Origin: Octopus vulgaris
Lineage: Eukaryota
Direction: 5' to 3'
DNA: 64,000 bases
NCBI GenBank assembly: GCA_951406725.2
Contig: OX597814.1
Coordinates: 124,310,001-124,374,000, forward strand
Made by a program: the position numbers and the translations under genes. Shown here one piece after another: positions 5,294-62,270 of this stretch. The first letter of the stretch is position 1. Each line of letters begins with the position of its first letter. The notes beneath the pieces are model-generated. The model saw only the letters and a list, made by a program, of their open reading frames with translations. It was not told the origin of the DNA and ran no database searches.

Positions 5294-6205
5294 GCCAAAG
5301 CCTACAATCTATCTACAAATATACACGTTTTATGTCGGTATCAACAAAAATATGAACATATTGAAATTAAAACAAATACAATGAGTACAAAACAATAAAA
5401 TGACAACATATATATAGACGACGTCTGACAACCTACCATATACAAGAAAATTAGTTGGAAAATTTGAAATCATTGAGAAAGCAACAGTAATAGTATGAAA
5501 ATTTCTGACATTCATAATTGAAGTGAACTATAATCAGCGTGGTTGTTTATTGACAATATGACAATGACAGTTTATTAGCTACATCAGTTAATTTCCTCTT
5601 TATATTAAAGTTATTGTTATTGGTCTCTAGACACCTAATTGAAAGCTGACAAACTTGTCATTGATTTTTTGGTGGCTCCTAAATGAATGCTGATGGTGGG
5701 GAATCGAGTTTTGAAGGAGTTTGATGTCAAACTAATGTATAACATTGAAAGTGTTAGTATATAGTATTTACTGCAGTACAGTGAATAATTCTTTTAGGCA
5801 TGCAAGTTTCTTTAAGAGGGCATTCGTTTGAGTTTGTGAAATTACAATACACACACACTCTCACACACACATACACGCACATGCAGGCATGTACGCACAT
5901 GCAGGCATGTACGCACACACACGTACACACATACATACATACTCACACACATACACACACACATACTCACACACACAAGAACACATACATACAAAAGCAA
6001 ACTGTTGGAGACCCTTCCCTTTTTTGCTCATCAATTGTAGAAATGGAACATATCTGCATCATTATTCTTATTAACACAGAGTAAGGCTTTGTACGAGGGT
6101 GGGCTGAAAACTTCATAGGCTGACAATGAGCACGCGCAAATATATACATAGGTATGCATATGCACAAACAGCGTAAATCAGAAAAACTGAAATAAATTTG
6201 GATAT

Positions 6206-13058: not shown

Positions 13059-13396
13059 CTGAGTGTTAAAAAGACAAGAAACAAGGTCTAGTGGCGTAGA
13101 AAGCTTTCTCAGTGCTCAGGGACAAAAACGTATTTTCCATCAGCACCTAAGTTAGCTAACATGATGGGCCAAAAGAAATTTATTTGCACCTTCAAACCTG
13201 AGCTCAAGATACTGCCCTTCTTGTCTTTCTACTGCTATATAACATTATAACAGTCCCTTAATTTTTTTTCAGCTTTTAAGGAGTATCGTGTGGAGTTGAA
13301 AATAAATCTGGCGTCATCAGCAAAAAATTCTGTGGGCTCTTTCAGTTGCTTAAAATTTTTAGGTACTGAAAATCCACAAGCGGTTGGTATCTTGAA
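13059..13396. repeat. 338-bp direct repeat, copy 1 (piece of decayed gypsy pol)
   Basis: About 5 differences from 15833-16169. Confidence 0.95.
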
Positions 13397-13439
13397 TATT
13401 GTATATATGACGGTAAATCTGTGTTATAAGCCAAGTTCA

Positions 13440-14945: not shown

Positions 14946-15650
14946 TTGTTCCATCAGTTATTGGCGTATATGGAACGAAATAACGAGTTGAAACTGTTTC
15001 ACCGTTTTAACAACAACAAACTTCCTGTGAGCGATGAAAAGTGGAACGGCTATTGGAAGGTGACTGCAGATTTACCAGGATGCCAAGGACTCTTTCTCAT
15101 CCCAGTTACGAAAAAAACGGACATTTTAATGTGGTGTGAAGGAAAGAAAGTTGTGAATCTAGTCGAGTTAACGGTTCCTCATGAAGATAACATAGACGCC
15201 GCTTGGGCTCGAAAGACTGACCGTTGTGTAAACCTCCTCGAGGAATGTGAAGACGCAGGCTGGAAAGCGGAGCATTTTCCAATCGAAGTCGTATGTAGAG
15301 GGTTTGTTGGACACAGTGTGAGACGACTGTTGTTACCGTTGGACCTCACCGATCGTAAAGTAAATATCACCATGACCGATATCCAAACCACAGTGGAGGA
15401 GGCTAGCCACTGGATTTGGTAAAAAAGAGATGATGAGCGATGGCAAGGAGAATATTGAGCTGTATTTAATAACCAGTTGATCTAGCAATCGGGGCCTCAT
15501 ATCAGTGAGGGGGCCGGTGCGCATTGATGCCGTCGAGAGGTAGGCCCCGAAACGGCGCGCATTCTCTCCTGATAACTCCATACACTTGCTGGCTTCCGAT
15601 ATGCAGAGCCCTCGACTGGTAGCACTTGCATGTACAAATTGTTTGCAAAA
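14946..15650 (+). mobile_element. HERO-like (RLE) non-LTR retrotransposon 3' end with structured 3' UTR
   Basis: WKVTADL...KTDILMW...LVELTVPHEDNI...PIEVVCRGFVG...VEEASHWIW. Confidence 0.88.
15507..15578 (+). ncRNA. Rearranged hammerhead-like motif (G8 mutated to A)
   Basis: gag|ggggcc ... gccg-TC-gagag ... ggcccc-GAAA-cggc ... ctctc-CTGATAA-ctc. Confidence 0.6.
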
Positions 15651-15832
15651 CATCCTGGTGACAGAACTGATCATTGGTGATCTTGGGATCAGAAATATTT
15701 TTCGCGGTAACACACCCGGATAGCATGTCTGCTAACTTGTCCACAAAATCGAGATGGTATATTACAATGAATTTATAGTCTGTTAACTCGTTTCTATATC
15801 GATAGACGTTCAATTTTGATTTCAGATAATCT

Positions 15833-17570
15833 CTGAGTGTTAAAAAGACAAGAAACAAGGTCTAGTGGCGTAGAAAGCTTTCTCAGTGCTCAGGGACAAA
15901 AACGTATTTGCCATCAGCACCTAAGTTAGCTAACATGATGGGCCAAAAGAAATTTATTTGCACCTTCAAACCTGAGCTCAAGATACTGCCCTTCTTGTCT
16001 TTCTACTGCTATATAACATTATAACAGTCCCTTAATTTTTTTCAGCTTTTAAGGAGTATCGTGTAGAGTTGAAAATAAATCTGGCGTCATCAGCAAAAAA
16101 TTCTGTGGGCTCGTTCAGTTGCTTAAAATCTTTAGGTACTGAAAATCCACAAGCGGTTGGTATCTTGAAGAACCAATTCTTATTCTACTATTTTCAAATA
16201 TTTGTTTGCAAAGGGAACTGGATATCTGCGATATTTATATTTTCCTTTGTTGAACTTCATTCCGAATTTGTTTTTGAATCTTTGATAAAATTGCATTGGT
16301 TAGCGTAATATTTTCCTATGTTTTGACTGTAACTATATTAGCAACAAGATAAACGAAAGTTTGTAAGAGTTTTGTTTTTGGATTTGGTTTGCAAGATTCT
16401 TTATATGAGTTCGTGTGTTGAAGCATATTCTGTTGTGTCTGGAGAGAGTCATTTTCTTTTTGTGCCTATAAGGCACAAAAAGAAAATGACTTTTTGTGCT
16501 TTATTATGTAACACACTTACCGGTAAAATTTCCACTTTTTTCTTATTTTTATTTTCCTAAAATTTTCGTTGCGTCTTGCAACCTTTTCAATAGTTAGAGT
16601 CAAAACTATTGAAAATGTTGCAAGACGCAACGAAAATTTAAGGAAAATAAAAATAAGAAAAAAGTGGAAATTTTACCGGTGAGTGTGTTACATAATAAGG
16701 CACAAAAAGAAAATAACTGTCCCCAGACACAACAGAATTGTAAGAGTTTATTTCTCAGAAAGACCACATCAAGAATTTTCTGAGATTTGGGCAGAATTAG
16801 TGAAATCAAAGACGAAGCGGTTAAATTTGTAATGCTAACCATTTCCTCAGAGGCCATGAGGCAGTAGTCTGCAGGACAAATAGGAACTTTTTATGATGCA
16901 TACTGTTAACTCATTTCACAAAAGAGATTGTTTACAACGACTTTGATAAGCAGTGTGTCGATATTAGAGGAAGGATATGCATGAACTTTAGGATACTCGT
17001 AAATGATTATCATGTTAAAATAATAGATTACTACTTGAGTTTGGGTCCTCTTACCGTATTTGTCACAAAACATTGCCATCTGTAAATAGTCCTGCTTTCT
17101 GGAGTAATACTGTTCGAGGGGCCGTCTTGACAGATTTGTGAGAGGCTTTAGTTTTGAAATATTTACTCCAGGAAACAGCTCATATGATGTACTTTTCAAA
17201 GTAGACAGGGTCATGTATAAAGTTAATAAAGCAAGTTTATCCACCCCAGTTTTATGTTTATTGGAGTGTTACTGTATTAGATCCATTCCAATAATGAGTT
17301 GGGGAACGAGAAAATGGACAAAAGGAAAATTTACGTCTCAGTGAATTTTAGCGTAGAGTTTAATAATAGTATTGATCTGACTTATTTTGCGAGAGTAATA
17401 GTTTTATGAGTAGCATTATTGCATTAGCTGTTGCTGTCATCCAGAATGTGTTTTTTAAATGAAGGTGTTATCTGAACCAGTATCAATTAATACTTTGACC
17501 ATTTAGTTATTGATAGAAGCATCAATTAAATGGCTTCCTTCAGGTACAGATGCATGAGTACTTGACAGCA
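15833..17570 (-). mobile_element. Ty3/gypsy pol relic (protease, RT, possible integrase piece), heavily decayed
   Basis: VKVLIDTGSDNTF and IIGMDL (aspartic protease); HAYPSSNIDTLL, TFVYLVAN (YLDN position) and FFADDARFI (RT thumb). Confidence 0.75.
16373..16737. mobile_element. Palindromic retro-insertion with a 12-bp TSD inside the gypsy relic
   Basis: TSD ttgtaagagttt at 16361-16372 and 16738-16749. Arms at 16491-16595 / 16604-16710. Homologous to 1095-1287. Confidence 0.88.
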
Positions 17571-32286: not shown

Positions 32287-35200
32287 CTAGCTGACGTACC
32301 CAGTAATTCCCGGAAAAAGCGGGGCTTATCCCTTGGTTCCGTTCTCATAATTGTTTCGCTAATACAATAACAATACAAATCATATAGCCCTCAAAACGGT
32401 TTTTGTGCATTTACGGAGAATACCGAACTGTCTTACACAGGATCTTGTATTTAGGAATTCCCAATAAGTTATGAATACCTAAATTGTGAAGTCAGTTATG
32501 TAATAACACGATATTAATTACTCGATAGTAAGAGTTCAAATAAAGTAGCCCCGAAAAGGACTTTATTGTGTTCCCAGAGTATATAGAACTTAGGAAGAAA
32601 TGCCAATCGTGAAGCATGTTACGTAATAACAGGCTAATCAGATATGAGATATTAACAATTCAATGTAAATAACTCTGAAAAGGGCTTTTGTGCATTCCCA
32701 GATAATATTACCCTCATTTAGAATGAATGTAGAAACAGACTGACATTTAGTTTTACAGTAGACATACAAATAAATTTGCATATAGATTTTAAAATAAAAT
32801 AACATGTCGATTATTAATTCATTTACAACACTTACAGTTAAATAATAAATACCTGATGATTTGGTGAATCTTATTAAGTCTGCAGAGATTCTTGATAAAC
32901 AATATTTTTGGTCTTTCCTTGTGGGGCATAATAAACAAATGATTAGGATTGCCGACGCTTGAGCAACCCACATGAAGTTGACCATGGGAGACAACTGGTT
33001 CCGCAAGGTTCAGATTTATGGCATCCAAGGACTGTCCCTGGGCTTTGTTAATGCTCATTGCAAAGCTCAGTTTCAACGGGAATTGCAGGCGCTTGTTCTG
33101 GAAAGGCATATCCAAGGGAATAAGTGGAATTCTATGAATGTATATAGGCTCACCGCTAGCTTTACCAGTTAAAATTGTTGTCTCCAAGATTATTGGCATC
33201 ATCTTCTTTATTATAAGTCGTCTGTCATTGCAAATCTTTGGTGGATCGAGGTTTCGAAGTAGCATAGCAGGTGCCCCAATCTTGAGGTGCAAGTTGTGAG
33301 GTGGGAGGTCAGGTGGTGTTAGACTATTCAAGAATTCAGCTAGATAATTCACAGCTTCATCAATGGAATTGTAGAGGTGACGCTCACCTGGCAACTGTTC
33401 TAGAAGTTTAAAGTTCAAATGATCAACTCCCATATTCTTTGAAGCTAAAATGGCATGGGTTTTCAGCCAGTTGTGGTATGTAAACTGGTTCCTCAGGTTA
33501 GGAAAAACCTTGTTCATTAGTTTCTTTAAATCAGATACCATATGTCCAAAAGGCAAACTTACAAGGCCAAACTTCTCGCCAACCGAAGTGCCATTACCAA
33601 CAATTGCTTTGAAAAGGTTCTGTCTGCATTATCACCACTGAGCTGCTCTTTCATGTTGGTGGTGTGTCTTAGCTTTTGCACGCTGCTCCATAGGTAGGAC
33701 GATTTTATGCTGGCATTTACTTCATCAGCTCTTGTCCTCTTTGGAACCACCGGAAGGGTTTGTCTAAAATCTCCTGCAAGCAAGACTGTGGCACCTCCCA
33801 TGAGCCTGGCGTTGTGTCTCAGATCCTGAAGGGACATGCCAAGAGCTTCAAAGAAAACCTTATGGCTCATTGTCGCTTCATTCCAGATGATCAATCTGCA
33901 TTCACCCAGAAGTTTGCCTTTTATAGAACCACGACTGATGTTGCAGTTTGCCTTCTCTTTCTTGGACAGGTCCAAAGGGAGTTTGAGACAGGAATGAGCT
34001 GTGTGGTCACCACTTAGCAGAGTTGCAGCTATTCCACTTGACGCCACTGCTATGACAATGTATTTCATTTGGCGCAGTTTAGCGAGAAGAACGTTGATGA
34101 CATGTTTTTCCAGTTCCACCTGGAGCATCCAGAAAGTAAAGACCTCCTCTTTCATTTTCAATGCTCGAAATAATGGTGTTATAAACACCCAGTTGGTCCT
34201 CCATCAGTTTGTGTTCTTTATCAGCTATATACGCCGTCATTTCATCGATGTCATAGCTGATTTCTCGCAGGTACTCAATTGCCAGATTTCTTACTGCCTA
34301 CTCCGGTTGAGGCAGACTAAATGTGGAATTGCCTTGACCTCCCATAGCTTGCATTCGGGTGTCCAGGTCACTTAATGTCTCATTGTAAATGGTGTTATTG
34401 AACGTGGCAAATTCTTTTTAGATGTCCTCTGCCATGCTGGTTTTGTGGATCGCCCAAAACTTGTGAGGTTCATGAAAGCCACATGTCATCAACATGATAG
34501 AAAATAGGAGGCGCAGTTGACTTAGTGCTGTGCTGACTACAGTCTCCTCCAGTCTGGTCCCAGTGAGCATCCTCCTCCAATAGTCCATGTTTGGCACATG
34601 CTTCTCTATAGGTCGTGCAGACTTCCCGTTGTCTTCGAAAGTCTGTGAATGATGTAGGTCCTCTGACAGTGTGTAGCAGTAGATGCAGAAAGAAACACTC
34701 CTGATGATCAGGAAGCACAGTGTACACCCGCCCGATGACCCCACTTCTGACGACAGCATCTTATTTCCAGCCCTCAATGCGTGTTCCTTGCTTGCTTCTG
34801 TTCCATCTATTGTGTACCCAGGGGACCTCTACGTATTGTGTACACGGGGACCTCTACGTACAACAGTGTTTGGGCAAACAGATCACATTGGTATAATTTG
34901 AAGAAAGCTGTCAAAGTGGTTTCTCATGGATTCAGAACTACGTTTCGAGCATTGATTTCTGTGAAATATACACGCTGGCCATTTTCAAGATGTACAGATA
35001 GATTTTAAGAAGGTGTTCCTACATGTAGACAGGGTGTGACCTTTGTGTTGACAGTGCATTTGTCTAAAGGCAGAACAGTTCTTCATGCAGCACTTGTCAA
35101 TTGACTGAAGTGACATGAAAGGCATCGTCATTCTTGGTATATTCGTGAATAAGTCACTAACTGAAATAAGTGGATCTATTGTTTAGGAAAATACTATTTA

Positions 35201-45735: not shown

Positions 45736-46139
45736 TTTAATAATAATAGTGGCCGGCAATACGTGCATCTCTGATCATGAGCAGAAGTAGTTGGGGAGCA
45801 TCATACCCATGTGTTGAAAGGAATTCTTGGATGTTTGGATAATTCACCTTTGGAAACATGGGTGGTTCGTTCAACATCCTTAAACAATCCTTATTCAGGG
45901 ACCCTTTGAGCGGGATGGGCTACTCAACCAGAAGAAAATTCTAACTGGGCCCCGCCTGCAAGGTCATGTGCTGTTTGTCTTGATATGAGATCACCATGTC
46001 GCGCACATAATGTTGTGATGCATGTGCCTAGTGTACCCTTATCAGACGGGTAGTCATGATGGGTATACTGGGCTTCGTATATTTTGCCCCGGTGTCGCTT
46101 TGATGGCATGCACTGCTCTCTCACTCAATGATAATAATG

Positions 46140-46257
<118 letters not shown>

Positions 46258-46267
46258 TAATAATAAC

Positions 46268-46870
46268 AAATACTACAAAATTGGCATTGCTGCTTATTGG
46301 TATGAACATCATCTTGAGCCAGAGGTTGAAGGTAAAATTGTCATTATCCTCTTTGATTTTCCTGTCAACTCTGACAGAACGATCCAGGCTAATCGACCAG
46401 ACATAATCAATAAAGACAAGGAAGAAAATTCTTGTAGAATAATAGACGTAAATGTTCCTACTGATAAAAATATATCTGTGGAGGAATTTGATAAATTAAG
46501 TAAATATAAGGACCTGGGAATTGAAATGGAAAAGATGTGGTATCTTAAAGCGAGAATTGTTCCTGTTATAGTAGGGGCCCTAGGTATGATAAAAAAGAAC
46601 GTCAGAAACTTTAGATAATATCCCAGGAGAACCATGTCTCAGAGAAATCCAAAAGATTGTGCTGAGAAGTACTGCCCGCATACTTAGAAAAACCTTATCC
46701 ATTTAAATGTCTGTGTTATATTACATGAAGATATTTCGCTACTGCTCCTGCCATTTGTGCTCCCCAAGCTTTCAGTCATACTGTAACATCTCTTGTCCTT
46801 CACTCGCTCTAGGACGCTGGGTGTGTTTCGGAAAATGATTGTAACAAACATGCAGATTAAAAGTAAATAA
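46268..46870 (+). mobile_element. R4/Dong-like RLE 3' fragment
   Basis: WYEH..FDFPVNSDRTIQANRPDII..IDVNVP..KLSKYKDL..PVIVGALG. Confidence 0.9.
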
Positions 46871-57829: not shown

Positions 57830-58149
57830 AACGTATAAGCCCGTAAGATCCTTGCATCAACTGGAAACTTCCATAGAAACAGTGATATCGACAGGCTCTA
57901 CATAAGTAGAGGTAAAGAAGGTAGCGGTTTGAGATCGGTGCAGACAGCCTTCGAATGTCCTATAGTCTCTCTCGGATACCACTTGCTAAACAACAGCGTC
58001 AATAATAAACTTAGTGCTGAAAAGCGAAGAGAAACATCCTATGTATCAACAGTGAGCTCCTCGGGAAACATTCTCTTACTGATGACTTTCCATACAACCT
58101 CAAAACAACTTAACGTACCTCAAAGAGGACCTGTATGTGAAACGCTCTG

Positions 58150-58428
58150 CATTGTTTTTTTTTTGTTTTGCGCCCTTTTCAAGCCTAGCCAGGATCATGG
58201 GCCCGGTTTCCCGGTTTCTATGGCGTATGTGTCCCCACCCCAGCTCGACGTGACGCCAGTCCATCGCAGCCTTACTCAAGAAACAGGAAGAAAGAGAGAG
58301 AAAGTTGGGGCGAAACAGTGCAACAGGGGTCGCCACCACCCCCTGCCGGAGCCTCGTGGAGTTTTAGGTGTTTTCGCTCAATAAACACACACAACGCCCG
58401 GTCTGGGAATCGAAACCGCGATCCTCCG
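58150..58428 (-). mobile_element. SINE family C, 5'-truncated
   Basis: Homology to 12555-12803 and 61829-62123. Confidence 0.85.
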
Positions 58429-59065
58429 GTTTATGCATGGGTATGTTCACGGAAGGCTTCATGAAGACAGACAGTAATATCGACACAAAGCGCAGCCTTT
58501 CTCGAACTCGTGACAGCAACATCACTTCTCTCTTTGAAAGCTACCTAATAAAGGAGAGACAGAGAAGGTCTGGAACTCCAAGATGGAGCCAAAAATGTCG
58601 ATTATGTCGTATTTCTTTGGAAGACATCTCATATGTGATTTGTAGCTACTCAAAAATGTCACCAAGGTACTACGTCCCTGTGCTACACGACCTTATCCAA
58701 AAGCAATACATAGTGCCATTTGCAAAACAAAGACTCTCCTGAAATCAATAGAGAAAATCTCTGTTATTGAATGCGTACATAAACACCAACACATGGTGGA
58801 ACATTCCCATGAAAACACCTGTCAAGTGTATACGTGTAAATGTAACAAGTTAGATATTGTTCTTTGGAGAAAGGAAGAAGAATGTACTGTCATAGAGGTC
58901 AGCTGTCCTGCTGACGTGAATATCTATTTGAAAATTAAAGGGAAAGGTGATAACTATGGACAACTGCTTCGAAACCTCCAGCTTCTATACCCAGGTTATA
59001 AATTCATGATAATGTCAATGATAATTGGTGCACTTTGTTTTGTGAATAAATATCTAACTGATAAT

Positions 59066-59306
59066 TACTCTTTACTCTTTCACTTGTTTCAGTCATTTGA
59101 CTGCGGCAATGCTGGAGCTCCGCCTTTAGTCGAGCAAATCGACCCCAGCACTTAGTCTTTGTAAACCTAGTATTTATTCTATCGTACTCTTTTGCCGAAC
59201 CGCTAAGTTATGGGGATGTAAACACACCAGTATCGGTTGTCAAGCGATGTTGGGGGGTGTGTGACAAACACAGACACGCAAACATATACACAGATACATA
59301 CATACA

Positions 59307-59400: not shown

Positions 59401-61783
59401 ATAAGATTAGCTCGTGTACGAGTGGGTATATATTTGTAAAAAATGAAGTTTGAAAATGCTGCTATATTAGACAAATTTTAATTTTTATATATACATTATT
59501 TATTTAACATGTTTCGGTTCTTGAAATGACGAACCTTATGAAAAAAAATTATATATAAAAAAGAGAGTTCATGCTATATGTTTAAAGAGTATGATGTAAT
59601 AGTTCATAATTGTGACATATATTCAATAGAGTCAAATATAAAAAATTCATATATAATATTCAATAGAGTCAAATATAGAAAATTCATATATATTAAAGCG
59701 AGTCCATGCTATATGTTTAAAGAGTATGATGTAGTAGTTCATAATTGTGACATGCATTCAATAGAGTCAAATATAAAAAATTCATGTTCTTGAAAAAGCG
59801 AGGAGTTCATTTTAGGTTTTACCTTGTGTTCCAATGGGAGCAACTGTAATGATTTTTGGTTGGTGTCTGTTCGTATAGTTTTGGTGAATTTTGTGATTGT
59901 TTAGGTTTATATCAGCTCAGCTTAGCTGTCTCACTTACACTTTTCACTGACGTCATATAGTTCCAAACCAATCAAAACCCAGTCTTAACAAATATATCCT
60001 GTTAGGAAACAGATCAAGCGGAACGACGGTTTGGCCACGGGAGAAATACGTCATCCTTTTTTTTGGCGAATCGAAGTTAGATCTGATCCATGACTGTATC
60101 CCGTTAGGTGGCTAGTCCAGCGGAACGAGACGTCATCAATGTTTTGACTCATCATCCCGTTAGGTGGCTAGTCCAGCAGAACGGGACGTCATCAATGTTT
60201 TGACCAATCAACCCGTTTGGTGGCTCGTCCAGCAGAACGAGACGTCATTCATATTTTGACCAATCATCCCGTTATGTGGCTAGTCCAGCAGAACGAGACG
60301 TCATCAATGTTTTGACCAATCAGAATCGGGTCTGACCTAAAGCTGTATTAGATCTGACCCATGACTGTATCCTGTTAGGTGGCTAGTCCAGCGGAACGAG
60401 ACGTCATCAATGTTTTGACCAATCATCCCGTTAGGTAGCTAGTCCAGCAGAACGAGACGTCATCAATGTTTTGACCAATCAGAATCGGGTCTGACTCATA
60501 GCTGCATCGTGTGGGGAAACCGACCAAGCAGGGTGACAATAGCTTGCCCACTGAGGTAATGCGTCATCAGTTTTTTGACGAATCAGGATTAGATCTGCTC
60601 GTAGAGATCTTTTTATAAAATTTTCCTTCCCTAAGACATGTCTCTGTCAGTGTGAATGACTGTTTAAGGATCTGAGAAATTGTAATTCGCCCCACTTCCA
60701 TTATTATAATACTCTCACTGTGGCCGTAGCAGCTGTGACCACGGTGGTTGTAGTAGTAGTGCGAGTTGGGGCAGTCGTAGTGGTTTCGTTTCTCTTTTTC
60801 GGAGGACCAATGTTTTGTTTTAATATTCCTGGCCCAGGGTGTTCAAACTTGGTCTAAATTTTTTGATGAAATAAAGTTCTTTATTTTGGCGTTGCGTGAA
60901 GGTTACGCTGTCACTGAATTTATAAAGCAGGTAAGTTGTAAATTTCGGATTTACATTTCCAGCACATCTATCTATGTGTCCGCTGACCGGTATTTTCCGG
61001 TATTCAGGGTTTCTAATTTGTCATTTATGCACCGCCATCCTGTTACGTAAGCTATTTTTTGTATGGCCTATATACTGCCTATTGCAGCCTGCGCATGTTA
61101 AGACGTAAATTAAGTTTTCTGATGCGCAGGTGAAGTTTGCTCTAATGGTGAACTGATGGCCTTGTTCTAGTATAAATTCTGAACCTTCTACCAAGATGAC
61201 ACAGATTCCGCAGTTGGGCCTTCCACGTTTTGTGGTTGATGTTGAGTGCAGTTTAGCTTGGGTTAAAATCCTTTTCAAGGATTTTGGTTGCCGTTTACTT
61301 TTAATGATGGTGTGTGTTTCGAGGATCCGGTTCATCTTTGGGTCTCCCTTTAGTAGGGCTGTGCTTTGTAGTATGGTGCTGAAGGCCTCATTGTTGAGTG
61401 GGTTGTGTGTAGAGATGTAGGGAAGGGTTTTTAATTGTTCTTTCTTTTTTGGTTTTGTTTGTCTCAGGTCTTCTATACTTAATTTGAGTGCCCTTTTGAT
61501 TGCACTGTCTATTAGGGGCTGTGGATAGTTTCTATTTGTGAGTGTGGTTCTAAGTTCCTGGAGACGTGTGTGTCGGGTGTTTGTGTCTGATATTATGGTG
61601 CAAATCCTTCTAGCTAAACAAAAAGGGACATTTATTCTAGTGTGTCGTGAGTGGCATGAATCAAAGGGTAGGTACTGTTTGGAGTCTGTCGGTTTATAGT
61701 AGATATCTGTCTCTATTTTGTTGCCGGTTTTCTTAATGAGGATGTCTAAAAATGGTAATTCTTCTTCGTTATGATCCATTCGT
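59400..61783 (-). mobile_element. Penelope-like element (RT thumb plus GIY-YIG endonuclease plus long 3' region), 5'-truncated
   Basis: ORF 61779-61021: LPFLDILI, TDIYYKPTDSKQYL, NLIYVLTCAGCNRQYIGHT..R; continues to ELYFIKKFRPSLN. Decayed hammerhead ...ggttc..gaaccgaaacatgttaaataaa near 59500-59540. Confidence 0.93.
60080..60490. repeat. 56-bp minisatellite (6 units) in the Penelope 3' region
   Basis: ccgttaggtggctagtccagcagaacgagacgtcatcaatgttttgaccaatcatc. Confidence 0.93.
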
Positions 61784-61786
61784 ATG

Positions 61787-61828
<42 letters not shown>

Positions 61829-61830
<2 letters not shown>

Positions 61831-62123
61831 AGGCGCAATAGCTCAGTGGTTAGGGAAGCGGACTCGCAGTCGTGGGATCGTGGTTTCGATTCCCAGACCG
61901 GGCGTTGGGAGTGTTTATTGAGCGAAAACACCTAAAGCTCCACGAGGCTCCGGTAGGGGGTGGTGGCGATCCCTGCTGTACTCCTTCGTCACAACTTTCT
62001 CTCACTCTTTCTTCTGTTGGCCTGCTCGCTTAGCCAGCGAGGTGGCGTATTGAAGGCTAAAACAATGCGAAACGCATTGTGACCACCGATGTGTAGCAAC
62101 ATCTAATAGACTGGTCCGTCACG
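61829..62123 (+). mobile_element. SINE family C, full length
   Basis: ggaggcgcaatagctcagtggttagg...gtttcgattccc (A/B boxes); A tail. Confidence 0.9.
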
Positions 62124-62183
62124 AAAAAAAAACATATATACATATGTATTTCCAAGGAATTTAATGCGCTTGGCTTAGATTTT

Positions 62184-62270
62184 CCTTTGGGGCTGGCCAG
62201 ATCGGAGCAATCTCAAGATTAATCAGCCGAAATTGCGAGGATGATCCGGTGTTTAACTGAAGATTGAAGG
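62184..62270 (+). ncRNA. Rearranged hammerhead-like motif with intact core, in a short TA-flanked element (about 62148-62345)
   Basis: cctttgg|ggctg ... gcaa-TC-tcaag ... cagcc-GAAA-ttgc ... tttaa-CTGAAGA-ttgaagg. Confidence 0.65.

Follow-up and report, generated by a model that had tools for sequence, protein, structure and literature searches.

A truncated LINE copy with a hammerhead-like motif in its 3' UTR

The window, the whole 64-kb stretch of DNA analysed here, contains a 5'-truncated LINE copy that shares 87% identity over 636 bp with the young copy L098, whose 1115-aa ORF includes a reverse transcriptase (RT) and a restriction-like endonuclease. The original prediction had placed a rearranged hammerhead motif at 15507-15578 in the 3' end of a LINE, which this assignment bears out. 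The four motif strings that it quoted are present in the sequence where it put them, in the 3' UTR, 76 nt 3' of the stop codon of the LINE family. The features of this locus and of a second motif in the window are listed below.

15012..15654, + strand: 5'-truncated LINE copy of the restriction-like-endonuclease type, about 640 bp
15012..15458, + strand: remnant of the C-terminal endonuclease coding region, with a premature stop at 15420-15422 and the family stop at 15456-15458
15482..15494, + strand: helix A, 5' strand (outer part 15482-15488, inner part 15491-15494), assigned from duplex energy and covariation in relatives; it would close the RNA beside A9
15495..15509, + strand: hairpin H, directly abutting helix A on one side and stem II on the other; in 19 of 22 motifs its terminal bases pair
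15510..15515, + strand: 5' strand of stem II, displaced; G15510 would correspond to G10.1 and the first pair is G-C in 19 of 22 motifs
15517..15522, + strand: helix X, 5' strand (-9.8 kcal/mol), joining stem II to stem I in the manner described for the 'I' helix of type-SGC hammerheads (PMC10085705)
15529..15539, + strand: block S, i.e. stem III 3' strand, U16.1 and C17, and stem I 3' strand; predicted cut between 15534 and 15535, truncation peak at the equivalent of 15535
15540..15556, + strand: 3-nt linker followed by block G, i.e. stem II 3' strand, GAAA (15549-15552) and stem III 5' strand
15557..15575, + strand: core CUGAUAA (15569-15575), preceded by the 3' strand of helix X and the 5' strand of stem I (15564-15568)
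15576..15592, + strand: helix A, 3' strand, assigned from duplex energy
15535..15654, + strand: predicted 3' cleavage product, up to the usual 3' end of the element; it occurs alone as short genomic insertions elsewhere
62184..62270, + strand: a second repeat family, apparently non-coding, in which the predicted fold recurs but lacks hairpin H; here stem I is damaged, and the cut is predicted after 62212

A first-look search of the 2.8-Gb genome G000 gave 2525 candidates of the LINE family. Young copies are about 99.5% identical to one another, with ORFs of about 1110 aa in which an RVT_1 domain was detected (E 6.5e-19) and zinc-finger and C-terminal restriction-like endonuclease motifs were recognized by eye. 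Among solved structures, the closest relatives of the LINE protein are R2 proteins. With a predicted single ORF comprising zinc finger, RT, CCHC motif and endonuclease, the family is a non-LTR retrotransposon of the restriction-like-endonuclease (RLE) class; it is putatively HERO-like. Searching the full ORF returned only RVT_1 and no GIY-YIG endonuclease, which places the family outside the Penelope-like elements (PLEs), with which it shares the partial-tandem layout only. No relative was found in viral contigs.

Architecture of the motif

Read 5' to 3', the predicted fold runs through helix A, hairpin H, the stem II 5' strand, helix X, block S, the 3-nt linker, block G, helix X, the core and helix A. 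Stem I pairs 15535-15539 with 15564-15568, stem III pairs 15529-15533 with 15552-15556, and stem II (ggggcc/ggcccc) pairs 15510-15515 with 15543-15548, while helix X (15517-15522/15557-15562) corresponds to the tgcgc/gcgca extension of stem III. All these pairings, as well as the G8 to A change at 15574, had been noted previously and were confirmed. A fourth pairing, proposed between gag and the ctc following the core, did not hold up: CTC follows the core in 3 of 30 LINE copies and CCCC in 24 of 30, and this strand pairs with GGGG at 15491-15494 as part of helix A (15482-15494/15576-15592), the gag lying in hairpin H. The helix A duplex is predicted at -9.0 kcal/mol versus -0.4 for gag/ctc.

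CUGAUGA is present in 76 of 81 LINE family copies (27 of 30 in a narrower set), so that the family consensus does carry CUGANGA as anticipated. Since family copies mostly show CUGAUGA followed by CCCC, we regard G8A as private to the window copy and gag/ctc as an accident of that copy. Being truncated and carrying G8A, the window copy is predicted to be inactive, in line with the earlier view that it is probably dead.

A canonical stem II starting directly after CUGANGA was ruled out, as only 4 of 22 motifs would allow the base following A9 to pair with 11.1, the base preceding GAAA, whereas the displaced strand gives a G-C pair in 19 of 22. We infer that in three dimensions the displaced strand supplies the 10.1-11.1 pair next to A9-G12. 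The fold would then amount to the non-circular S-G-C arrangement with a break introduced between A9 and 10.1, which helix A and usually hairpin H close. Nested folding energies were no better than those of shuffled sequences (z 0.14 and -0.66), as expected for a pseudoknotted RNA.

The family form has a hammerhead core, with CUGANGA, GAAA and UH framed by predicted stems I-III. Its strand order, unlike that of types I-III of Rfam, is not circularly permuted, nor does it fit their covariance models: no hammerhead was among the 150 window matches listed (of 174) in Rfam, and Rfam searches with four loci gave only one match (17.3 bits, E 7.7). The closest known relatives are the type-SGC and type-CSG non-circularly permuted hammerheads. 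Eckert et al. (2023, PMC10085705) describe active S-G-C hammerheads in which the stem II strand is assumed to follow CUGANGA uninterrupted. The LINE motif resembles them in the S-G-C order, the 3-nt linker between stems I and II, the helix joining the other sides of these stems and the full core. It differs in that stem II is not formed by the strand following CUGANGA and the chain is opened between A9 and 10.1. Judged by its predicted pairings, the motif thus has the order, the short linker and the 'I' helix of type SGC, and lacks the uninterrupted block C. We classify it as hammerhead-like in its predicted working, outside types I-III and outside strict type SGC. Hammerhead variants with additional helices are also mentioned, citing Weinberg 2015, in PMC13725137. 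A literature search, largely of open-access papers, turned up neither this topology nor a HERO element with a hammerhead.

Conservation in distant relatives

Distant relatives were collected as 80 metagenome-contig loci from an endonuclease profile search (29-51% identity), of which 10 with a UTR below 200 nt were left out. A strict S-G-C descriptor matched 40 of the 70 remaining UTRs but none of 1400 dinucleotide shuffles and none of the 70 reverse complements; CUGANGA was present in 59 of 70. Many of the 30 UTRs that did not match are visibly decayed, but about 11 are devoid of any core.

As the strict descriptor itself demanded stems I and III, two independent tests were run. The first kept the core and shuffled the sequence upstream of it; in 18 of 21 loci, stem II together with helix A outperformed at least 95 of the 100 shuffles. 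Moreover, a descriptor consisting of the helices only matched 29 of 70 loci and 0 of 34 shuffles; inside these 29 matches CUGANGA was found in all, GAAA in 26 and UH in 27, and G17 in none. Several Watson-Crick pair types occur at most stem positions among 22 motifs, about 6 of whose parses are mis-registered. These data show that the predicted fold and its core are conserved across distant relatives, and that equivalent folds exist in other 3' UTRs of this kind, as the original prediction required.

The fold in further repeat families

The second motif in the window belongs to an apparently non-coding family, which forms a tandem of about 755-bp units in L396 (one of two regions examined). 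The family is a candidate retrozyme, a class of non-coding tandem units that contain a hammerhead and are expressed as circular RNA. Evidence tying the motif to the neighbouring GIY-YIG element was not found: the motif lies on the opposite strand and nothing links its family to the adjacent GIY-YIG ORF. The idea of an RNA module shared by two unrelated repeat families, with covarying stems, was supported; hairpin H is absent from the 62184 family. No autonomous partner for the 62184 family was found in the regions examined. The adjacent ORF (60830-61842, - strand) is truncated and Penelope-like with a C-terminal GIY-YIG domain; it is followed at 60050-60600 by short tandem repeats containing GATGACGTC, and a tRNA-like SINE (about 61830-62130) lies between it and the 62184 motif.

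Genome-wide, GAAAC precedes CTGANGA by 15-40 nt at 68,258 places in G000, versus 23,289 for the reversed pattern. Among 20 other repeat regions of G000 with GAAAC before CTGANGA, 9 parse to the fold and 11 do not. One of these nine is likely due to chance, three belong to the 62184 group, and five (L192, L194, L203, L206 and L210) represent three more repeat families.

A related arrangement is present in Naiad PLEs. In Craig et al. (2021, PMC8557442), Naiad elements are reported to be without canonical hammerheads and eight are marked 'HHR_half_core', with no fold proposed there. Inspection of the supplement by eye revealed the same strand order and pairings as in the LINE motif in at least five consensus 3' ends, namely Naiad_Obim, Naiad_Ovul and the three whose entries immediately precede Naiad_Aacu, Naiad_Anas and Naiad-1_Movir. 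At least two further Naiad ends have the ordinary C-G order.

Many short insertions begin at the predicted cut site

If the RNA is cut, short insertions are expected to begin there. A search pattern that left out copies with intact upstream sequence matched 44 places in G000, 20 of which were internal deletions or indels and were left out. Nine of the 24 true truncations, spanning -13 to +4, begin at position 0, corresponding to 15535 in the window (p 3e-6 versus uniform), two at -1 and at most three at any other position. Among the first 100 of 488 LINE copies, 23 of whose 24 exceptions were inspected, 2 begin at position 0 and none at -1 to -6. In the 62184 family, where 513 places were matched, the first 30 taken and 5 of these left out, 11 of 25 truncations begin at position 0, 9 at +2/+3 and none at -1 to -3, the first T of the position-0 starts possibly deriving from a (TA)n target. 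A control window at +9 to +25 yielded 12 truncation candidates with at most 3 per position, 8 of them at +21 to +25 (20 of 55 rows, chosen by eye, with lower detection odds). This secondary cluster implies that RT stalling or microhomology also acts here; position 0 is the highest single truncation position, yet not the sole hot spot.

Because the core is invariant and the truncations peak at this position, cleavage in vivo at the predicted bond, after C15534, is very probable. That the fold has ceased to cut and serves as a protein-binding scaffold for the RT, the truncation peak marking an RT pause, is in our estimate very improbable. Such a scaffold would fit the secondary cluster and the fact that nearly all insertions read through the site, but the core bases and the exclusion of G17 are kept across elements with only 29-51% protein identity, and two families that differ in sequence have their peaks at the same predicted bond. 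Furthermore, little structure would be left to stall the RT at position 0, because the downstream partner strands would already have been copied.

Small deletions between short repeats recur within the motif, in about 10 of 44 rows, for instance, from the H loop to the linker that precedes stem III, and possibly reflect RT slippage across folded RNA.

Element ends, partial tandems and a model for the template

It had been suggested that the motif could define the 3' end or the RT-binding site of the element RNA. In 46 of 50 copies, insertions end 114-123 nt (about 118 nt) beyond the predicted cut, which therefore does not generate the 3' end; judging by the truncation peak, it marks a 5' boundary. 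Of 20 long loci, 13 are truncated within the 3737-bp unit and 7 run beyond the unit start, all 7 continuing into an upstream 3' end with an identical junction. Insertion 3' ends run 0-12 nt into this junction sequence, as expected if the RT starts inside a longer RNA. Internal RT initiation has been shown for a Penelope-like element (PMC11167929). Head-to-tail signatures were also found in 12 of 80 metagenome loci, assembly being able to collapse such repeats.

Upstream, 26 of 28 junction copies reach past the upstream cut, by 12 to >1500 nt (two share a flank), the remaining two stop 3' of it and none stops at it. This rules out the cut as 5' end of full-length copies.

We lean, by a modest preference, towards a model in which the pseudoknotted hammerhead fold cuts the element RNA after C15534 and re-joins the unit-length RNA into a circle, which would be copied by the RT from an internal start about 118 nt downstream. 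Hammerhead cleavage leaves 5'-OH and cyclic-phosphate ends. A partial-tandem locus transcribed through two ribozymes would thus release a unit RNA with such ends, which would stay paired via helices A, II, X and III, so that the ribozyme would be rebuilt in cis. Judging from this anatomy, ends held by four helices should favour ligation, by the RNA itself or by a host ligase. The RT would start internally, cross the sealed site and perhaps circle more than once, giving rise to partial tandems, while unsealed RNAs would yield the short copies of about 118 nt beginning at the cut. Cutting at two ribozymes in succession would leave the RT start close to the 5' end of the RNA, which would yield full and over-length copies only once sealed into a circle. 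Against this model, partial tandems could also arise from uncut read-through transcripts, and hammerheads with a break between A9 and 10.1 have no recorded activity.

The use of uncut RNA is the basis of another explanation, which we consider rather unlikely: slow or upstream-only cutting would free the element RNA from a read-through transcript and provide a translatable 5' end, the template being linear, uncut tandem RNA. The same fold and truncation evidence fits this explanation, and the cut site is unscarred in most copies (exact in 392 of 488; 21 of 23 exceptions inspected are point changes or small indels). In addition, 5' ribozymes act in this way in R2 and L1Tc and tandem cutting has been proposed for PLEs (PMC6765202), and SGC hammerheads are slow, with rates of 0.007-0.19 per min (PMC10085705). 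However, long copies should begin at the upstream site if the template's 5' end were set by the cut, and 0 of 28 do; tandems would also be expected to shorten in every generation unless regenerated.

The exactness of the junctions bears likewise on the possibility that the RNA stays nicked with its products paired and that the RT jumps the nick, no covalent circle being formed. The four helices would hold the cleavage products together, R2 RT is known for end-to-end template jumping, and a single base is lost at the cut site in 2 of 44 rows (L323 and L348). Yet template jumps usually add or lose bases and the junctions are nearly always exact, which makes this possibility improbable.

Several unusual loci were encountered. 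L135:1-5470 comprises two head-to-tail units that are 69.5% identical and each carry the motif, representing either two different families in tandem or a chimeric assembly. Runs X1 and X2, from one study, contain a unit of about 1250 nt with deep coverage and an internal deletion (L098:2257-3249 joined to 5733-6018), which has kept the ribozyme motif and the junction. The X1 contig of this unit (1283 nt) is nearly self-closing, as would be expected alike of a circle, a tandem and a partial-tandem locus; its RNA nature is a guess, and the unit carries no weight in the model above. The deletion joint was absent from 30 G000 loci checked. Run X4 shows two other deletions with similar break points. 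The deleted unit is possibly a non-autonomous, retrozyme-like derivative.

Relation to other retroelement ribozymes

Penelope-like pLTR hammerheads and non-LTR retrozymes (PMC11167929, PMC6765202, bioRxiv 10.64898/2026.07.22.740005) resemble the LINE motif in having a hammerhead near the 3' end, partial tandems and an RT start inside the RNA. PLEs differ from the LINE, whose protein is an R2-group RT with restriction-like endonuclease and without GIY-YIG, and whose ribozyme is not a minimal type I. The 5' HDV-like ribozymes of R2 and L1Tc (PMC6765202) are likewise self-cleaving RNAs processing a LINE transcript, a function predicted for the LINE motif; they differ in class, in their 5' location and in that full-length copies start at the cut, whereas the long copies described here read through it.

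We put forward tentatively, as a proposition falling somewhat short of probable, that the fold constitutes a seventh hammerhead topology, opened inside the CUGANGA block and widespread in animal genomes, and that the LINE clade uses it for a circular RNA that is rolling-circle copied from an internal start, a module and strategy shared with Naiad. If true, this would be a natural hammerhead topology outside the six counted by Eckert et al., would mean that non-circular permutations occur in high copy number in eukaryotic genomes, and would supply a ribozyme for some Naiad elements in which Craig et al. could find none. It also suggests that an R2-related LINE clade copies itself as PLEs do, from tandem or circular RNA, which bears on the purpose of retroelement hammerheads and on R2-type gene-insertion tools. 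Every step of the mechanism is testable with young copies carrying intact ORFs.

Other repeats in the window

Decayed repeats at 46019-46618, 57839-59155 and 32819-34203 (- strand) comprise fragments of the endonuclease of another LINE type together with a pair of helicase-like ORFs, which is presumably Helitron-like. The strict scan found no motif near these repeats. A nearly identical direct repeat of about 340 bp (13062-13397 and 15835-16170) brackets 2.8 kb including the LINE copy and is too long for a target-site duplication.
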